Source: a virus
Virus record (IMG/VR): IMGVR_UViG_3300048564_000035
Span: 1 to 64,000 of that record
DNA length: 64,000 bases
Strand: one strand, 5' to 3'
Under the pieces are notes generated by a model that ran no database searches, was not told the DNA's origin, and saw only the letters and a list, made by a program, of their open reading frames with translations. Positions 7,359 through 12,807 of this stretch are shown here, one piece after another. The first letter of the stretch is position 1. Every line of letters starts with the position of its first letter. Both the position numbers and the translations under genes were made by a program.

Positions 7359-7539
7359 AAAAAAAATATCATCGTTTACGGGAAACCGTAAAAAAATGTC
7401 AAAACAGGTTACTATCTTAGCAACATTAAAAATAAAGGCAATTATACCCATTTACACGCAGAGGGGAAAATCTGTAATAATATAATCTTTTGACCTACTC
7501 CAAAGGTCTTAAATTCTATCACTTTTAGGCAAAATGAGC

Positions 7540-8355
7540 CTACCCTTCTTTTACCATTGTATTAACTGTATCAAAAGCAGTTTGAATTTTTTTAGCAAAA
7601 TCCTCACATTCTAATTTTAGTTCGGAGCTTTTTTGCTTTAAACCCTTAGATTGTTTTTTTGTCTTCGTTGAAGACTTCAATGAATAATAAATGAAATGAC
7701 CTGTAGGTAACAAAACACTCAAACCTAAATTAAACCAAGAAAAATCATACTGGCAATTAATAGCGGGAAACCATTTTTGTAAATAAAAAAAGACCGGATA
7801 AACAAGAAAAATACAAATTGGAAATACGATTAAAACTTTATTATATGAGGGGGCAATTTTTTTAAAGAAGTTAGATTTCTTATCCTTAAATATCCATATT
7901 AATATCAAAATGGATAGAATATTAAAAAGCCCAAATAATTCTCTATTTATTGGTTCTGAGAAATCAAGCTCAAAACCATTCAAAAGAAGGATTAAGATAC
8001 AATATAAAGCACCGAATAAACAGAGATAATTAAAGTTTTCGGAAATAGAGTTTTGCTGAATGGAGTGCTCTAATTCTGTATGTAAAGAAGATATATTTTT
8101 CTGAATTGCTTCGTTTTCATCGTTCAATTTCCTAACAACTGCTTCAGCATTCCCAATACCATTACACTTGTCGCCTTCAGCAATTAATCTTTCTATATTA
8201 TTGCTTTGAATACTACTTATTAGTTTTAGCTCTTTCTCTATATAGACAAAATGGTTATTAACCTTTCGTATCAAAGATTCGATAAAGTGATTCGATACAA
8301 TATATGCCGAATTGAGAGCTGCAAAGAACTCAAAGAAGTGGCCGAAGTGCTCCAA
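7540..8355 (-). CDS. membrane protein (271 aa): N-terminal coiled-coil region, about 4 TM helices, basic/coiled C-terminal tail
   Basis: ORF track. The first codon is TTG, 5 nt after the stop of 8361-8927, and the ORF has no internal ATG until near its end. Hydrophobic stretches include YLCLFGALYCILILLL, LFGLFNILSILILIWIF, VLIVFPICIFLVYPVFFYL and FNLGLSVLLPTGHFIYY. Confidence 0.7.
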   Translation of the reverse strand: MEHFGHFFEFFAALNSAYIVSNHFIESLIRKVNNHFVYIEKELKLISSIQSNNIERLIAEGDKCNGIGNAEAVVRKLNDENEAIQKNISSLHTELEHSIQQNSISENFNYLCLFGALYCILILLLNGFELDFSEPINRELFGLFNILSILILIWIFKDKKSNFFKKIAPSYNKVLIVFPICIFLVYPVFFYLQKWFPAINCQYDFSWFNLGLSVLLPTGHFIYYSLKSSTKTKKQSKGLKQKSSELKLECEDFAKKIQTAFDTVNTMVKEG

Positions 8356-8360
8356 AATGT

Positions 8361-8927
8361 CTATTTTTTTAAGATAAGGTGGACAGGTTCTGACTTAGTT
8401 ATATCATTAAATATGTCGTCGAAAATTAAAGACAGATTTTTAGATGCCTCTGCATCATTAAAATTACCAAATGCGGTAAAAGATTTCGTATCATCCTCTA
8501 CTCTGTACATTTTGCCATCGGCGACAGTAAAATGTATTTCATGCAATTGGTTTTTTTCTTTTTCCTCTCCCGCTCTAAACAGCTTATTTGAATGCTTTTT
8601 GACTTCCACATTCTTTGGATTTATAATAGAATAAAATCTAAGAATATCAAATATTTTTGGCTCTTCTGTTCTGCTTTCAAATTTTTCTTTTTCGAGCAAT
8701 ACTTTTATTTTACCCCCTCTGCTAAGAAAGTTTTCAAGCCCATTTCTATATTCTTCTTTTGAAGATATTTCTCCAGAGAAGTTTCCTGCAAAAACTCTTA
8801 TAGTATCTTTTGCGGTTGCGAAAATAGTAGCCATTACCAGTGCTGCATGATCTGGCCCTGAATTATAAAACACGACACTCTTCCCTTGCTTTGCAAGATC
8901 TTTTATATATTCTCTGTATTGGTTCAT
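8361..8927 (-). CDS. Nuc/phospholipase-D-superfamily-like protein with a non-canonical HxT motif (188 aa)
   Basis: ATG at 8927; the track start at 8951 is TTG. Two stretches align by eye with the single-domain PLD nuclease Nuc. The first is HAALVMATIFATAKDTIRVFAGNF...LSRGGKIKVLLEKE. The second is HEIHFTVADGKMYRVE...TAFGNFNDAEASKN, corresponding to the ...SIR...RGV.VK.V.D and HxK..D...GSxN..A regions. Thr replaces the catalytic Lys. Confidence 0.6.
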   Translation of the reverse strand: MNQYREYIKDLAKQGKSVVFYNSGPDHAALVMATIFATAKDTIRVFAGNFSGEISSKEEYRNGLENFLSRGGKIKVLLEKEKFESRTEEPKIFDILRFYSIINPKNVEVKKHSNKLFRAGEEKEKNQLHEIHFTVADGKMYRVEDDTKSFTAFGNFNDAEASKNLSLIFDDIFNDITKSEPVHLILKK

Positions 8928-9223
8928 AGTAATTATGTTGGATAAGGTCAAAGGTTTTTAAACATCATGGCTCTCATAAGATAATCAGTATTTGGAAGTG
9001 TTTGAAAGGGGAATGGAGGCATTTACAAGCATTTGACAAAATTATAAACTTTTTATCCACACCTGCTAATGAATATAAAGGTATGAAGGAAGCCTCCGTA
9101 AAAAAAGTTATAGTTTTCAACGATTTGTGCATAAGTCATACTTGATTATTAATTAGTTATAAAAAAAACTACGTCTAAATACGTATAGTAAAATTACTAT
9201 TTCATGGGAGCTTTTCAGGAATG

Positions 9224-9238
9224 AATTTGTATTACAAT
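9224..9238 (+). repeat. 15-bp box AATTTGTATTACAAT, copy 1, upstream of the RHH gene
   Basis: Exact repeat of 9436-9450. It ends 26 nt before ATG 9265. Confidence 0.8.
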
Positions 9239-9264
9239 GAAATACTTTGTATATTACATAAGCA

Positions 9265-9423
9265 ATGAAACAAGATAATAAATCTGAAACGATTATTCTA
9301 AGGGTAGAGCCTGAATTAAAGGCTGATCTTCAAAAAATGGCAGACGTAGATAGCCGTAAACTGGCTGATTATATTAGAGTTCAGCTTAGAAAGATGGTTG
9401 ACCTTTCTAAAAAGAAAAAGTAA
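9265..9423 (+). CDS. ribbon-helix-helix (CopG/Arc-like) DNA-binding protein (52 aa)
   Basis: Below the ORF-track cut-off. The sequence IILRVEPELKADLQKMADVDSRKLADYIRVQLRKMV fits a beta-strand/helix/helix RHH pattern. Confidence 0.55.
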   Translation: MKQDNKSETIILRVEPELKADLQKMADVDSRKLADYIRVQLRKMVDLSKKKK

Positions 9424-9435
9424 TTTTTTTTGACC

Positions 9436-9462
9436 AATTTGTATTACAATTGAATACAAATT
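9436..9462 (+). repeat. 15-bp box copy 2, embedded in an inverted repeat AATTTGTATT-7nt-AATACAAATT
   Basis: The box is at 9436-9450 and ends 27 nt before the transposase ATG at 9478. The 10-bp arms at 9436-9445 and 9453-9462 are perfectly complementary. Confidence 0.8.
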
Positions 9463-9477
9463 AATAAACTGAATAAA

Positions 9478-10452
9478 ATGGATTTCAATTTCAAAACAGA
9501 AGATGAATTTAATGAGTTTTTTCATAGCGAAAGGGCTTGTTACGAGTTTTATGAAAAAGAAAGATGGGAAAATGGTACGCCTGTTTGCCCTCATTGTGGT
9601 TCTGTGAAATATTATAATGTAACACCCAGGGGAAAGTTTAAAGATATTCCGTCATACAGGTGCGGTATCAGGGAATGTGGTTTGCCATTTACCGTAAGAA
9701 CAAAGACAATTTTTGAAGGTAGCAAGGTTACGTTTAAAAAATGGCTAAAGGCAATCTATGAAATAAGCATCCGCAAAAAAAGCATTTCTTCAATTGAACT
9801 TTCAAAGAGAATTGGAGTTAGTCAAAAAACCGGATGGTACATTAACCACAGGCTCCGTGAAATGCTGACAGATACCAGTCCTGAGTTATTAAGGGACTAC
9901 GCAGCGATTGACGAAACGCTTGTGGGTGCTAAATCCCGGAATAAACACAGGTATAAAAGAATACCCAATTCGCAAGGACGTGCAGCAAATTCAGGGAAAG
10001 CAATTGTAATGGGGGCAATAGGATTGCGTGGGCAAGTGAAAACAAAAGTCATCGGTGTAGTGGATAAAGATAATATCCAAAAGTTTGCTAACGATTCAAT
10101 AGAGAAAAAGGCAATTATGGTAACGGACGAGTTAAGAGCCTACAACATTTTAGATAAAGATTACTTTCGTATAACGGTAAATCACTCAGAAGAAAATTAC
10201 GTGAATGGAGCTTTTTCGACCAATGGTATTGAGAATTATTGGAGCCACTTTAAAAGGACAATTATCGGTACGCATCATGTTGTCAGTCCTCAGCATTTGC
10301 AAAAGTATTCGGACGAGTGCAGCTTTAGGTACAACCGGAAGGATATAACCCCCGCTCAGGTGTTTAATGCTATGGTAAAAAATGCTGAGCGGGAAAGAAC
10401 GACCTACTCAGTATTGACAACTGAGTGGAAAAAGCTATTTCCCGAAGATTAG
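9478..10452 (+). CDS. IS1595-family (ISXO2-like DDE) transposase with N-terminal zinc ribbon
   Basis: CPHCGS...YRCGIRECG forms a zinc ribbon. An HTH segment is SISSIELSKRIGVSQKTGW. The DDE-type motifs are AIDETLVGAK, MVTDELRAY and NGIENYWSHFKR. Confidence 0.85.
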   Translation: MDFNFKTEDEFNEFFHSERACYEFYEKERWENGTPVCPHCGSVKYYNVTPRGKFKDIPSYRCGIRECGLPFTVRTKTIFEGSKVTFKKWLKAIYEISIRKKSISSIELSKRIGVSQKTGWYINHRLREMLTDTSPELLRDYAAIDETLVGAKSRNKHRYKRIPNSQGRAANSGKAIVMGAIGLRGQVKTKVIGVVDKDNIQKFANDSIEKKAIMVTDELRAYNILDKDYFRITVNHSEENYVNGAFSTNGIENYWSHFKRTIIGTHHVVSPQHLQKYSDECSFRYNRKDITPAQVFNAMVKNAERERTTYSVLTTEWKKLFPED

Positions 10453-10471
10453 CTATATTTGAAAACAGGGA

Positions 10472-10496
10472 AGGCATACCGAAAAATGGTATGCCT
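10472..10496 (+). other. strong hairpin immediately after the transposase stop
   Basis: AGGCATACC (10472-10480) pairs with GGTATGCCT (10488-10496). No T-run follows. Confidence 0.5.
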
Positions 10497-10648
10497 CCTG
10501 AATTGCCCGCGAAGCTCTTCATTTTACCTGTAAAGAGGCCGTCTGCTTGGGGGTGGGGGACTGGTCACAGACACTAGTCCCGACTCTAATGTGGCCTCGT
10601 CTGTGCGAACACCCTTACACGCTGCCTCAGCATTTTTAGCACCTAAAA

Positions 10649-10679
10649 TTTGCTATTTAATATTTTTCACCTACTTTTG
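10649..10679 (+). promoter_or_regulatory. near-consensus Bacteroidota promoter with no downstream CDS
   Basis: TTTG at 10649-10652, a 19-nt spacer, then TActTTTG at 10672-10679. Confidence 0.6.
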
Positions 10680-10685
10680 TTATAG

Positions 10686-10828
10686 ACAAAAAGGGAACGG
10701 TGCGGATTGTCCGCTACTTTGAGGTCAAATCTCAATGTGTTGATTACACCAGCCGTTGTCCCTTATATGTTGAAGTTTATTATTAAATCCATCTTACAGG
10801 TTTGAAGGCGTGTTAGATGGATTTTTTT
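10686..10828 (+). ncRNA. candidate small RNA of about 140 nt with a 70-nt cloverleaf-like core and an intrinsic terminator
   Basis: The closing helix pairs GGGA/ACGG (10693-10700) with CCGT-tg-TCCC (10753-10762). It encloses three hairpins: GCGGA-ttg-TCCGC, TTGAG-gtcaaat-CTCAA and GTGT-tgatt-ACAC. A terminator follows, with AATCCATCT (10786-10794) pairing with AGATGGATT (10815-10823) and a T-run to 10828. The only ORFs present are 12 aa or shorter. Confidence 0.5.
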
Positions 10829-10829
10829 A

Positions 10830-11402
10830 TTACCATATCTTTTCCATTTTTTTTATTGGATAAAATTCCTTTTTTAATTCCCCGTTATCATCCCACCAAA
10901 GGGGACTGCCGTAATAATAACCTTTTCCCCCGTCTTTATGTATTTTCAATATATTATTTTTTACCAGCTTGATAGTTATCGTGTTAGAAACCAATCCTGT
11001 TAATTGTTTTTCAGTATAATTTGGTTCAAATTTTTGAATGATATCGACAATCTCCTTTACTGAAAGCACTCTATTTTCATGTTTTACAACGGCAATAATC
11101 TTATGTTTCCACATTTTTCCATGAGGGTACTCAAACTTAGGTTTCTCGCTGTCTGCCATTTGTGTCCTTATTTGAGTAGGTAGCCCCTCGAATAGACTAG
11201 TAGGCATCTCAGCGCTATTTAGTAAATCTTCAATGGGCTTACCGTCTGAATAGAGTTCTATAATAAGGCGTGCCCTTTGAATAGATTTGTCCCTTTTCTC
11301 TTTTTCAATAGCTGCCACCCTATCTTCCTCCATCAACTTCTTTAGCTTAGAGATAGAGTCTTTAAGTATTATTTCATCAGTAATATGACCTGTATTTGCC
11401 AT
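10830..11402 (-). CDS. hypothetical protein (191 aa), C-terminal winged-helix-like segment
   Basis: ATG at 11402 (MANTGH...). The track start at 11450 lies inside a promoter-like stretch. TAtaTTTG sits 17 nt upstream of the ATG on the minus strand. Confidence 0.6.
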   Translation of the reverse strand: MANTGHITDEIILKDSISKLKKLMEEDRVAAIEKEKRDKSIQRARLIIELYSDGKPIEDLLNSAEMPTSLFEGLPTQIRTQMADSEKPKFEYPHGKMWKHKIIAVVKHENRVLSVKEIVDIIQKFEPNYTEKQLTGLVSNTITIKLVKNNILKIHKDGGKGYYYGSPLWWDDNGELKKEFYPIKKMEKIW

Positions 11403-11542
11403 TAGTATAATTATAGGAGCAAATATATGAGATGTGACAAATGTACGCAAATATATTTTTGCAGGGCGTTGTTGACCAATGGTAGCGGGATAGGAATCTA
11501 AACTAAAAGAAGAAAGGAATCGGGATAAAAAGAAGTGATTTT

Positions 11543-11779
11543 CTACTCTGATAAGCCTTTTAATAGGTCTGTTATATCAATTTGCAGTCCTTTGCATATA
11601 TCTAGTAGATATAAATAACTTGGGTTAACAGCCCCTTTTTCCAATCGGTTAATAGACTGTCTTTCCTTATCAATTAATTCACCCAGTTTTTCCAATGTAA
11701 ACCCCTTTTGCTCCCTTATGGCTTTTACCCTTTGACCTAAAGCTGTCAGCTTCTTTTGTTGGCTTTTACTTATTGGCAT
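11543..11779 (-). CDS. XRE-family (Cro/CI-type) helix-turn-helix transcriptional regulator (78 aa)
   Basis: LGQRVKAIREQKGFTLEKLGELIDKERQSINRLEKGAVNPSYLYLLDICKGLQIDITDLL is a classic HTH_3 pattern. Confidence 0.85.
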   Translation of the reverse strand: MPISKSQQKKLTALGQRVKAIREQKGFTLEKLGELIDKERQSINRLEKGAVNPSYLYLLDICKGLQIDITDLLKGLSE

Positions 11780-11902
11780 AGGTCAATAATACCCATACCT
11801 GATAAAATATTTGTCAACGGATTCGTTCCGAATTGGAAACTTACTTACATTTAACTTGCGAAACGCTATTAATGGGCTTTCGCTTTTATCCCTGTTCTGA
11901 AA

Positions 11903-11991
11903 CGTAGGAATTTCAAGTCCACAGGGAGAGAGGCAAAAGAACCTATACTTTATAGGTATGGGTTCTCTCTTTCGTGGACAGGTCTCCTACG
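11903..11991. promoter_or_regulatory. 89-nt imperfect palindrome (7 + 15 + 7 bp helices) in the divergent region next to the XRE gene
   Basis: CGTAGGA (11903-09) pairs with TCCTACG (11985-91). Positions 11917-11932 pair with 11965-11979 with one bulge. The apical palindrome is ACCTATA-ctt-TATAGGT (11941-11957). ATG 11958 lies inside the structure. Confidence 0.7.
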
Positions 11992-12305
11992 ACCTCAGAA
12001 CGATTGTAGAGACTCATGCCTTTTTTATGAATATATTCGAACAACACAAACAGTTCTTCAATAAGCCTATCTTATTGGACACAGAATTGCAGGAATCGCC
12101 TGCAAATGTTATAGATGAATTTGCAAGTGATTACCATTTGTGGGAAGCAAAGGAATATCTCTCAAAACTTCGGGATTGTGCTTTACTTACCGAAAACAGC
12201 CACTTTTCTACTGGGATTGAACGAAAGCACATATCAACCTTTATAGAAGATTTGGAAATTCTGGCAGAAGCTATCTCCCTGCTAAAGCTGAAAAGGAAGA
12301 AATAA
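11958..12305 (+). CDS. hypothetical protein (115 aa; alternative start at 12027)
   Basis: ORF track. The annotated ATG is embedded in the palindrome, so the true start is uncertain. Confidence 0.45.
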   Translation: MGSLFRGQVSYDLRTIVETHAFFMNIFEQHKQFFNKPILLDTELQESPANVIDEFASDYHLWEAKEYLSKLRDCALLTENSHFSTGIERKHISTFIEDLEILAEAISLLKLKRKK

Positions 12306-12319
12306 TCTACCTTTGGTAC

Positions 12320-12481
12320 ATGGCAAAAGCCTCAAAGAAAAAACAACCCGCTAAAAAGGCTCCCAAAGAGGTAAAGAGGGGTAGCTACGATAATAAGCTA
12401 TCGGTAACAGGTAGCTTCATGGATATAATAAAAGCATCCGTTAAGGATGCTACCAACCACAGCGCAAAAAAGAAAGATTAA
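12320..12481 (+). CDS. small basic protein (53 aa)
   Basis: Below the ORF-track cut-off. MAKASKKKQPAKKAPKEVKR... fills an otherwise empty gap. Confidence 0.35.
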   Translation: MAKASKKKQPAKKAPKEVKRGSYDNKLSVTGSFMDIIKASVKDATNHSAKKKD

Positions 12482-12492
12482 CAGAATAAGCC

Positions 12493-12720
12493 ATGACTGA
12501 AATTATAACGATAAATGGCATTGATTTTACCGTAGATTATAACGGAGATAATATATCCTTTTCAGGAGGCGATATTATTGGGAATGCTACTTTTACCTCA
12601 TCACCTGACGGGGGAATACATAAGGCAACTTATGACTTGGGCACTCACGCTAACGATAATTCAAGAGATGCCGTTCACAAATTGATTTCGCAGCTAAAGA
12701 GAAAAGTTATAGGCCACTAA
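12493..12720 (+). CDS. hypothetical protein (75 aa)
   Basis: ORF track. Confidence 0.5.
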   Translation: MTEIITINGIDFTVDYNGDNISFSGGDIIGNATFTSSPDGGIHKATYDLGTHANDNSRDAVHKLISQLKRKVIGH

Positions 12721-12807
12721 TTGTTTAGTCCAATTACCTACAATTAAATGGTTTTTAATAATTTTCAACCTGCGTGTAAATCGGTATACTTGCCAAAATA
12801 AAACATT

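Follow-up and report, generated by a model that had tools for sequence, protein, structure and literature searches.

Positions 1 to 64,000 of the IMG/VR virus record IMGVR_UViG_3300048564_000035, a 64,000-nucleotide (nt) stretch to which we refer as the window, contain a short non-coding unit that the initial annotation described as an orphan promoter, cloverleaf RNA and terminator. The unit is not an orphan: it is internal cargo of a complete 5,358-base-pair (bp) transposon of the IS1595 family (7437-12794) inserted in the phage, and a fixed component of an element that is delimited by terminal repeats and an 8-bp duplication. It follows the transposase and a GC-rich non-coding domain, and is in turn followed by a convergent open reading frame (ORF), ORF X (Table 1). 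Our results suggest that the body of this RNA is the mirror image of a transfer RNA (tRNA)-like element carried by related transposons, and that the RNA may act as a cis-encoded antisense RNA.

The promoter that had been proposed for the unit is present. It carries the Bacteroidota signature (TTTG at -33 and TAnnTTTG at -7, spaced by about 19 nt, plus a same-strand intrinsic terminator) both by sequence match and by conservation in relatives, the promoter block recurring in eight related elements (L004, L006-8, L009, L010, L029 and L068). Transcription is predicted to start near 10686. The 70-nt core takes a four-way junction as its minimum-energy fold (-24.0 kcal/mol, z -2.4), in agreement with the earlier description, with a closing helix that we find to be 4+5 bp with a 2-nt bulge. 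Its three arms comprise 5 bp with a 3-nt loop, 5 bp with the 7-nt loop GUCAAAU, and 4 bp with a 5-nt loop; the middle arm is as first reported, and can be extended to 7 bp with a 3-nt loop. The terminator is likewise present, with a stem of 10 bp here in which AAATCCATCT (10785-10794) pairs with AGATGGATTT (10815-10824) and runs into seven T (10822-10828). As a whole, the 143-nt unit folds at -45.4 kcal/mol (z -3.95), and none of 200 shuffled sequences is equally stable. The longest ATG-initiated ORF within it has 12 codons, so that the claimed lack of longer ORFs holds for ATG starts; two mechanical ORFs with GTG or TTG starts, of 43 and 32 amino acids (aa), overlap the unit and are not conserved in relatives. 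Judged by these sequence features, the promoter, cloverleaf and terminator together are a real small-RNA gene with a predicted transcript of about 140 nt. The initial annotation had allowed that the region might instead be the 3′ untranslated region, or the insertion sequence (IS) end, of the transposase unit. The unit does lie inside the IS, and the transposase mRNA would meet no strong plus-strand terminator ahead of the one at 10785-10828; that the unit has a conserved promoter of its own nevertheless speaks for a separate transcript.

Table 1. Features of the IS1595-family transposon in the window and of the small-RNA unit that it carries
Feature	Position	Strand	Details
Left target-site duplication copy, 8 bp	7429-7436	.	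AAAATAAA, identical to right copy
Left terminal inverted repeat, 24 bp	7437-7460	+	GGCAATTATACCCATTTACACGCA; family repeat motif
IS1595-family transposase, 324 aa	9478-10452	+	Zn_ribbon_IS1595 and DDE_Tnp_IS1595 domains
11-bp hairpin by transposase stop codon	10470-10498	-	T-rich tail on minus strand; terminator-like for a minus-strand transcript
GC-rich conserved non-coding domain	10500-10645	.	CTnTAATGT motif; contains terminal-repeat-like half-site
Bacteroidota-type promoter	10649-10679	+	TTTG 10649-10652, 19-nt spacer, TACTTTTG 10672-10679
Four-way-junction RNA body, 70 nt	10693-10762	+	Minimum-energy fold; minus-strand complement probably a decayed tRNA-like cloverleaf
Intrinsic terminator of small RNA	10785-10828	+	10-bp stem and T7; abuts stop codon of convergent ORF X
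ORF X, hypothetical protein, 190 aa (206 aa from TTG at 11450)	10830-11402	-	C-terminal half winged-helix-like
Three TAnnTTTG boxes upstream of ORF X	11420-11455	-	Likely promoter, by sequence inspection
Right terminal inverted repeat	12771-12794	-	22/24 positions identical to left repeat
Right target-site duplication copy, 8 bp	12795-12802	.	AAAATAAA

The transposase matches DDE_Tnp_IS1595 (E 1.7e-32) and Zn_ribbon_IS1595 (E 1.2e-10), both past the Pfam cut-offs, and 339 homologues of it were found; relatives of the transposon were drawn from metagenomes, viral contigs and genomes. The 24-bp terminal-repeat consensus in these relatives is GGYAAnTATACCCnTTTACACGCA, a motif found in 22 related loci, while the number of terminal-repeat matches expected by chance in the window is 0.11. 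Given that the 8-bp duplication is perfect and that the two repeats agree at 22 of 24 positions, the transposon moved recently, and the phage's 5-kb accessory island is one recently inserted transposon. Besides the transposase, the RNA unit and ORF X, its cargo includes a PLD-like/four-transmembrane gene pair, an RHH gene, an XRE gene and small ORFs. Direct DNA searches returned no close copy in the phage collection or, with two exact patterns, in the viral-contig collection, and neighbour-protein scans of viral contigs returned none either.

Related transposons bear on the nature of the RNA. The nearest transposases (P0002 and P0003) are 85-86% identical to that of the window, and the space 3′ of the window transposase aligns, by nhmmer and blastn, with the elements L004, L006-8, L009, L010, L029/L071 and L068. 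This aligned space consists of the GC-rich domain and the promoter block, and in L004 it also takes in part of the cloverleaf (nhmmer E 1.9e-14); from the transposase stop codon to the first bases of the RNA, the sequence is homologous in eight related elements. The slot that comes after the promoter block and before the hairpin abutting ORF X is occupied in elements of one transposase clade. In the transposase tree, the window belongs to a 14-member clade (support 100) with all units of its layout, and L068 is its sister (support 97). Directly 3′ of the conserved promoter, several of these relatives carry the reverse complement of a tRNA: ARAGORN reports minus-strand tRNA-like genes in that slot in L004, L006-8, L009, L010 and L011. 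In a second transposase clade with a second layout, the tRNA-like genes that it reports are on the plus strand and precede the transposase by about 130-340 nt. Hence, the co-occurrence with IS1595-type transposases that the initial annotation proposed to look for does exist, as the units recur in related Bacteroidota IS1595 elements. What was said there of a tRNA-like shape is probably right in that the cloverleaf is tRNA-related; the likeness, however, belongs to the opposite strand, of which the predicted RNA would be the mirror image.

A covariance model built from the tRNA-like sequences (R1) finds 17 element-associated places among the 96 loci searched, with scores of 48-86 bits, and the Rfam tRNA model gives L041, L025 and L010 45-51 bits on the strand opposite the promoter. 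The cloverleaf is supported by covariation, with 89.7% of cells paired versus 68% in shuffles and at most 47% in slid controls, and with compensatory changes at 18 of 21 pairs; pairing is poor in the anticodon helix, at 67% of cells, good relatives included. The best-preserved group has the anticodon ACU or GCU, and a second group resembles Glu(UUC). Host tRNAs that score next-best under R1 are tRNA-Arg, with about 57-70% identity to the tRNA-like sequences in global alignment, a distance that rules out a perfect antisense to a host tRNA. Also ruled out is the landing of an IS beside a host tRNA gene, as every tRNA-like sequence sits between the terminal repeats of its own element and the window has no tRNA. 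In L088, a second, partial tRNA-like copy (2729-2798, 26.5 bits) lies in tandem just upstream of the main copy, which indicates local duplication of the module. At L056 (4099-6811), a related transposase adjoins six ordinary-looking tRNA genes (Asn, Val, Met, Cys, His and Trp) and two weaker tRNA-like matches; these could be tRNA cargo of the phage type or mere neighbours.

To which strand the transcription signals belong was surveyed for 18 element-borne cloverleaves, with nine host tRNAs in the same loci as controls. Antisense to the tRNA-like sequence, a TAnnTTT(G/A) box lies 12-22 nt upstream in 15 of the 18 elements, and an intrinsic terminator is found on the antisense strand in 17. Box and terminator occur together in 14/18 elements versus 0/9 host tRNAs, more than chance would give. 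The initial annotation was right in seeing a discrete transcription unit tied to the IS1595-type transposase next to it. Two stand-alone host tRNAs are arranged the other way round: their box lies on the sense strand at -21 or -22, and so does their terminator, at +35 or +38. Given these antisense-strand signals, the predicted transcript is the mirror image of the tRNA-like element, an "anti-tRNA". The transcribed strand also folds better than the tRNA sense strand in the window (-24.0 versus -21.6 kcal/mol), in L008 (-26.3 versus -20.3) and in L029 (-15.1 versus -11.5). It holds two G-U pairs in the window versus none on the other strand, and the wobble-pair strand test slightly favours the mirror strand in the window-like group as a whole.

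The sense strand may be transcribed as well. In the well-preserved group, the motifs of the D- and T-loops are conserved, so that a sense RNA would have been selected, at least historically. Furthermore, a sense-strand (T/G)AnnTTTG box lies just upstream of an A-run and hairpin, about 50-60 nt before the tRNA-like sequence, in eight of nine well-preserved members (L041, L047, L079, L080, L084, L085, L088 and L094). In this group, sense and antisense promoters would thus converge at a distance of about 120 nt and give fully overlapping transcripts. From these signals, we infer transcription of both strands across the cloverleaf.

In the window, the minus strand keeps the arm order of a tRNA: a 4-bp D-like arm, a 5-bp arm with the loop AUUUGAC, a 4-nt variable region and a 5-bp T-like arm. 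Both elbow loops are gone, however: the T-like loop is down to 3 nt, and GG is missing from the D-like loop. The acceptor, of 8-9 bp, is interrupted by a bulge. The best match of R1 in the transposon is this cloverleaf, on the minus strand, at a non-significant 7.7 bits (E 0.27). ARAGORN detects no tRNA in the window, relaxed settings included. An Rfam scan finds nothing at the gathering score for the RNA unit, and a permissive scan of 10400-10900 yields weak, chance-level matches only, RF00005 (tRNA) being absent at E up to 10; these outcomes fit the absence of D- and T-loop signatures observed in the initial annotation. That the plus-strand cloverleaf is a tRNA mimic or decoy, as the initial annotation suggested, or that the minus strand is a working tRNA-Gln(UUG)-like molecule, is accordingly hard to credit. 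The cloverleaf shape would suit either idea, as would the 7-nt middle loop, which on either strand has U and A at the equivalents of positions 33 and 37; arm order, loops, ARAGORN and both covariance models all speak against them, and the CAA and CAG codons of the transposase occupy ordinary Gln positions.

Given how far the tRNA side has decayed, the whole unit might be a relic, either because a promoter and terminator that once served against a tRNA-like partner have become functionless, or because an outward-firing backbone promoter is all there is and the terminator merely shields ORF X. The loss of the D- and T-loop features is what such a history would leave behind. The window transposase also has a terminal branch of 0.76, compared with a median of 0.15, and differs at 10 alignment columns with at least 90% conservation, which may reflect decay or rapid evolution in the phage. 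The sharp boundary between backbone and body, described below, is likewise in keeping with a relic. Nevertheless, the transposon moved recently, the promoter and terminator match their consensus, the fold is significantly stable, and even degenerate bodies retain a closed multi-branch fold. We therefore consider a relic unlikely.

The boundary in question emerges from the comparison of sister elements. These transposons are 70-87% identical from the left end to the RNA body, and then unrelated until near the right end, with homology lost at most a few bases from where the RNA body begins in each of three pairs (L009 4392/L029 4122, L008 4178/L068 4184, and window 10694/L068 4184). Since homology ends there, the promoter would belong to the transposase backbone, while the RNA body, terminator and ORF X would be exchangeable cargo. 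By this comparison, the breakpoint for cargo exchange seems to lie at the start of the RNA body, where the tRNA-like sequence has its 3′ end.

In nearly all elements, a gene that runs in the direction of the tRNA sense strand adjoins the terminator hairpin, and in the window this gene is ORF X. In relatives with the window layout, no more than about 100 nt separate the RNA terminator from the stop codon of this gene or the end of an ATG-initiated ORF; the upstream layout has a gap of about 100-200 nt. The ORF X-type proteins of the window-like group share a coiled-coil plus winged-helix-like pattern, and the window protein is similar to that of L010 (E 3e-6). It belongs to no Pfam family, and the other leads (HARE-HTH and winged-helix only) are weak in Pfam, PHROGs and PADLOC. 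The neighbour genes of the second layout belong to other, mutually unrelated families. The first minus-strand terminator-like hairpin beyond ORF X is the one at 10498-10470, by the transposase stop codon, and its T-run on the minus strand is found in seven of nine related elements. Given the promoter-like boxes of ORF X and the lack of an earlier minus-strand terminator, the ORF X mRNA probably extends across both the tRNA-like relic and the GC-rich domain, a tail to which the plus-strand RNA would be antisense.

The GC-rich domain (10500-10645) is conserved 3′ of the transposase in eight related elements, with the motifs GGCTAATG and CTnTAATGT. It could belong to a long minus-strand 3′ tail or form a structured RNA by itself; its alignment yielded no usable consensus structure with RNAalifold. 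It also holds a half-site, ACCCTTACACGC (10611-10622), which resembles the terminal repeat (...TTACACGC) and lies 40-60 nt 5′ of the RNA promoter. Similar half-sites occur just 5′ of the transposase in the second clade (L041 at about 2935-2960, L079 at 2946-2963 and L085 at 2953-2970). Such half-sites may offer the transposase additional places to bind, or be left over from an older, shorter IS.

Several functions were considered for the RNA. One is that it guides the transposase to the element ends or to a target, in the manner of IS110 bridge RNAs or the omega RNAs of IS200/IS605-type elements. Its tight linkage to one transposase clade, in either orientation, and the half-site near its promoter would be in line with such a role. 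However, the enzymes of the IS1595 family belong to the classical DDE transposases and produce 8-bp duplications, no stretch of at least 11 nt of the cloverleaf matches elsewhere in the element, terminal repeats included, and the RNA body varies along with the cargo, whereas the terminal repeats are nearly constant. L005, a minimal member of the family, and others transpose without any such RNA. The guide-like RNA suggested in the initial annotation is thus very unlikely.

The RNA could also be a structured small RNA that works independently, for instance by binding a protein such as the transposase or ORF X, or by acting in trans on a target in the host or phage, so that its tRNA ancestry would be history only. 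The better fold of the transcribed strand in the window, L008 and L029 is what one would expect of such an RNA, as are a promoter and terminator near consensus and a closing helix retained where tRNA features are lost (L068 and L029). Its body, on the other hand, is unconserved between sister elements and is hard to fit to a specific protein partner, it belongs to no Rfam family, and across 17 elements no consistent signal emerged for pairing in trans with the transposase or ORF X start regions. In our judgement this explanation, too, is improbable. In the window, the 5′ arm of the terminator, AAATCCATCTTA (10785-10796), is complementary at 11 of 12 positions to the start region of the transposase, TAAAATGGATTT (9474-9485), which is within chance and does not recur in relatives.

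Private recoding of the transposase by the element's tRNA is unsupported: in the ACU/GCU group, AGY codons fall on invariant Ser columns, and GAA/GAG, GGA and CAA codons occupy ordinary positions with no recoding signal. No second small RNA complementary to the anticodon arm was found within these elements. As these tests argue against private recoding and a guide-RNA role, cis-antisense action is the simplest mechanism left, and a regulator of the neighbouring cassette or an antitoxin-type RNA, both named in the initial annotation, are the best functional guesses.

We thus favour a cis-encoded antisense, or anti-tRNA, RNA that acts on a sense transcript with a tRNA-like segment, and would put its probability at roughly one half. 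According to this proposal, the Bacteroidota promoter would start transcription near 10686, and the resulting RNA of about 140 nt would fold as a four-way junction and end at the hairpin and T-run. Its body would be the reverse complement of a tRNA-like element that related transposons still carry in recognisable form. It would pair with the sense transcript, in the window the 3′ tail of the convergent winged-helix gene ORF X, and would thereby govern how that transcript folds, how it is processed or how stable it is, much as antisense RNAs do in insertion sequences and in type I toxin-antitoxin pairs that overlap at their 3′ ends. We infer both the pairing of the two RNAs and its effects from their predicted overlap. 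In the window copy, the mRNA of ORF X may be the only remaining target of the antisense unit, or the unit may be a well-preserved relic.

A number of observations weigh against this proposal. The window copy is linked to its tRNA-like relatives by position, flanking homology and a weak R1 score; its cloverleaf has no close relative, and the covariation comes from the cloverleaves of the relatives, not from the helices of the window. The RNA body is non-homologous in the sister elements L068 and L029. In L068, it is not even a cloverleaf but a three-way junction with no tRNA features, and in L029 it is degenerate, though the sister element L009 is tRNA-like. The promoter may simply fire into whatever cargo follows. 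Furthermore, in the better-preserved group the numbers of wobble pairs point to the tRNA sense strand as the one that folds, ORF X has no toxin or RNA-related domain recognised by searches of Pfam, PHROGs and PADLOC, and L005 (the minimal IS), L064, L002 and L069 are family members without the RNA unit.

A bolder version of the antisense proposal, which we find possible but doubtful, is a two-RNA module on Bacteroidota IS1595 transposons: an irregular, possibly mis-decoding or harmful tRNA-like RNA, together with an antisense RNA that keeps it in check. The pair would form an RNA-RNA addiction or control system whose tRNA-like segment marks the cargo-exchange junction, and the phage copy would represent a late stage in which the tRNA is dead and the antidote survives. 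If the module works as proposed, a widespread transposon family carries tRNA-shaped RNAs along with their own antisense RNAs, and annotation pipelines would label the good copies "tRNA" while missing the antisense gene and the decayed copies. It would also link irregular tRNAs to antisense control on mobile DNA, and add an RNA-only module to the known cargo of transposons and phages.

Among known systems, the element itself is closest to the passenger-gene subgroups of the IS1595 family in ISfinder, such as ISPna2+ and ISNwi1+. It shares with them the Zn-ribbon and DDE_Tnp_IS1595 domains, terminal repeats starting with GG, the 8-bp duplication, and cargo between the ends. To our knowledge, a conserved small-RNA or tRNA-like module as core cargo is not part of the description of this family. 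A literature search for IS1595 elements with tRNA-like or non-coding RNAs found nothing relevant, and we found no published description of a tRNA-mirror small RNA as transposon cargo. Relative to the tRNA family (RF00005), the same-slot relatives are alike in their scores opposite the promoter and their strong cloverleaf covariation; the window copy differs in failing every tRNA test, and promoter and terminator lie antisense to the tRNA-like sequence.

Antisense RNAs of mobile elements are well known from IS10 (RNA-OUT/RNA-IN) and from 3′-overlapping type I toxin-antitoxin pairs such as txpA/RatA and bsrG/SR4 of Bacillus subtilis. Like RNA-OUT and the type I antitoxins, the RNA described here is short, strongly promoted and terminated, lies in a mobile element, and is predicted to be fully complementary to a convergent or overlapping transcript. 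Unlike in those systems, what is overlapped here is neither a translation start nor a small toxin ORF, but a tRNA-like element within a 3′ tail or an intergenic spacer. In further contrast to the type I pairs, no toxin is recognised here, and pairing and effect are predictions from sequence.

Finally, Mukai et al. 2017 (PMC5389517) note that irregular tRNAs are often neighbours of transposable elements and toxin-antitoxin loci, and that they may have no part in translation. The elements described here resemble them as non-standard tRNA-like genes with odd anticodons that travel with mobile DNA, perhaps outside normal translation. The preserved bodies differ from those irregular tRNAs (PMC5389517) in being canonical 7/5, not 8/4 or 9/3. 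They are, moreover, Arg-like with ACU/GCU anticodons, or Glu-like, and reside in Bacteroidota IS1595 transposons, where a dedicated antisense transcription unit, a feature absent from the published description (PMC5389517), overlaps the tRNA-like bodies.

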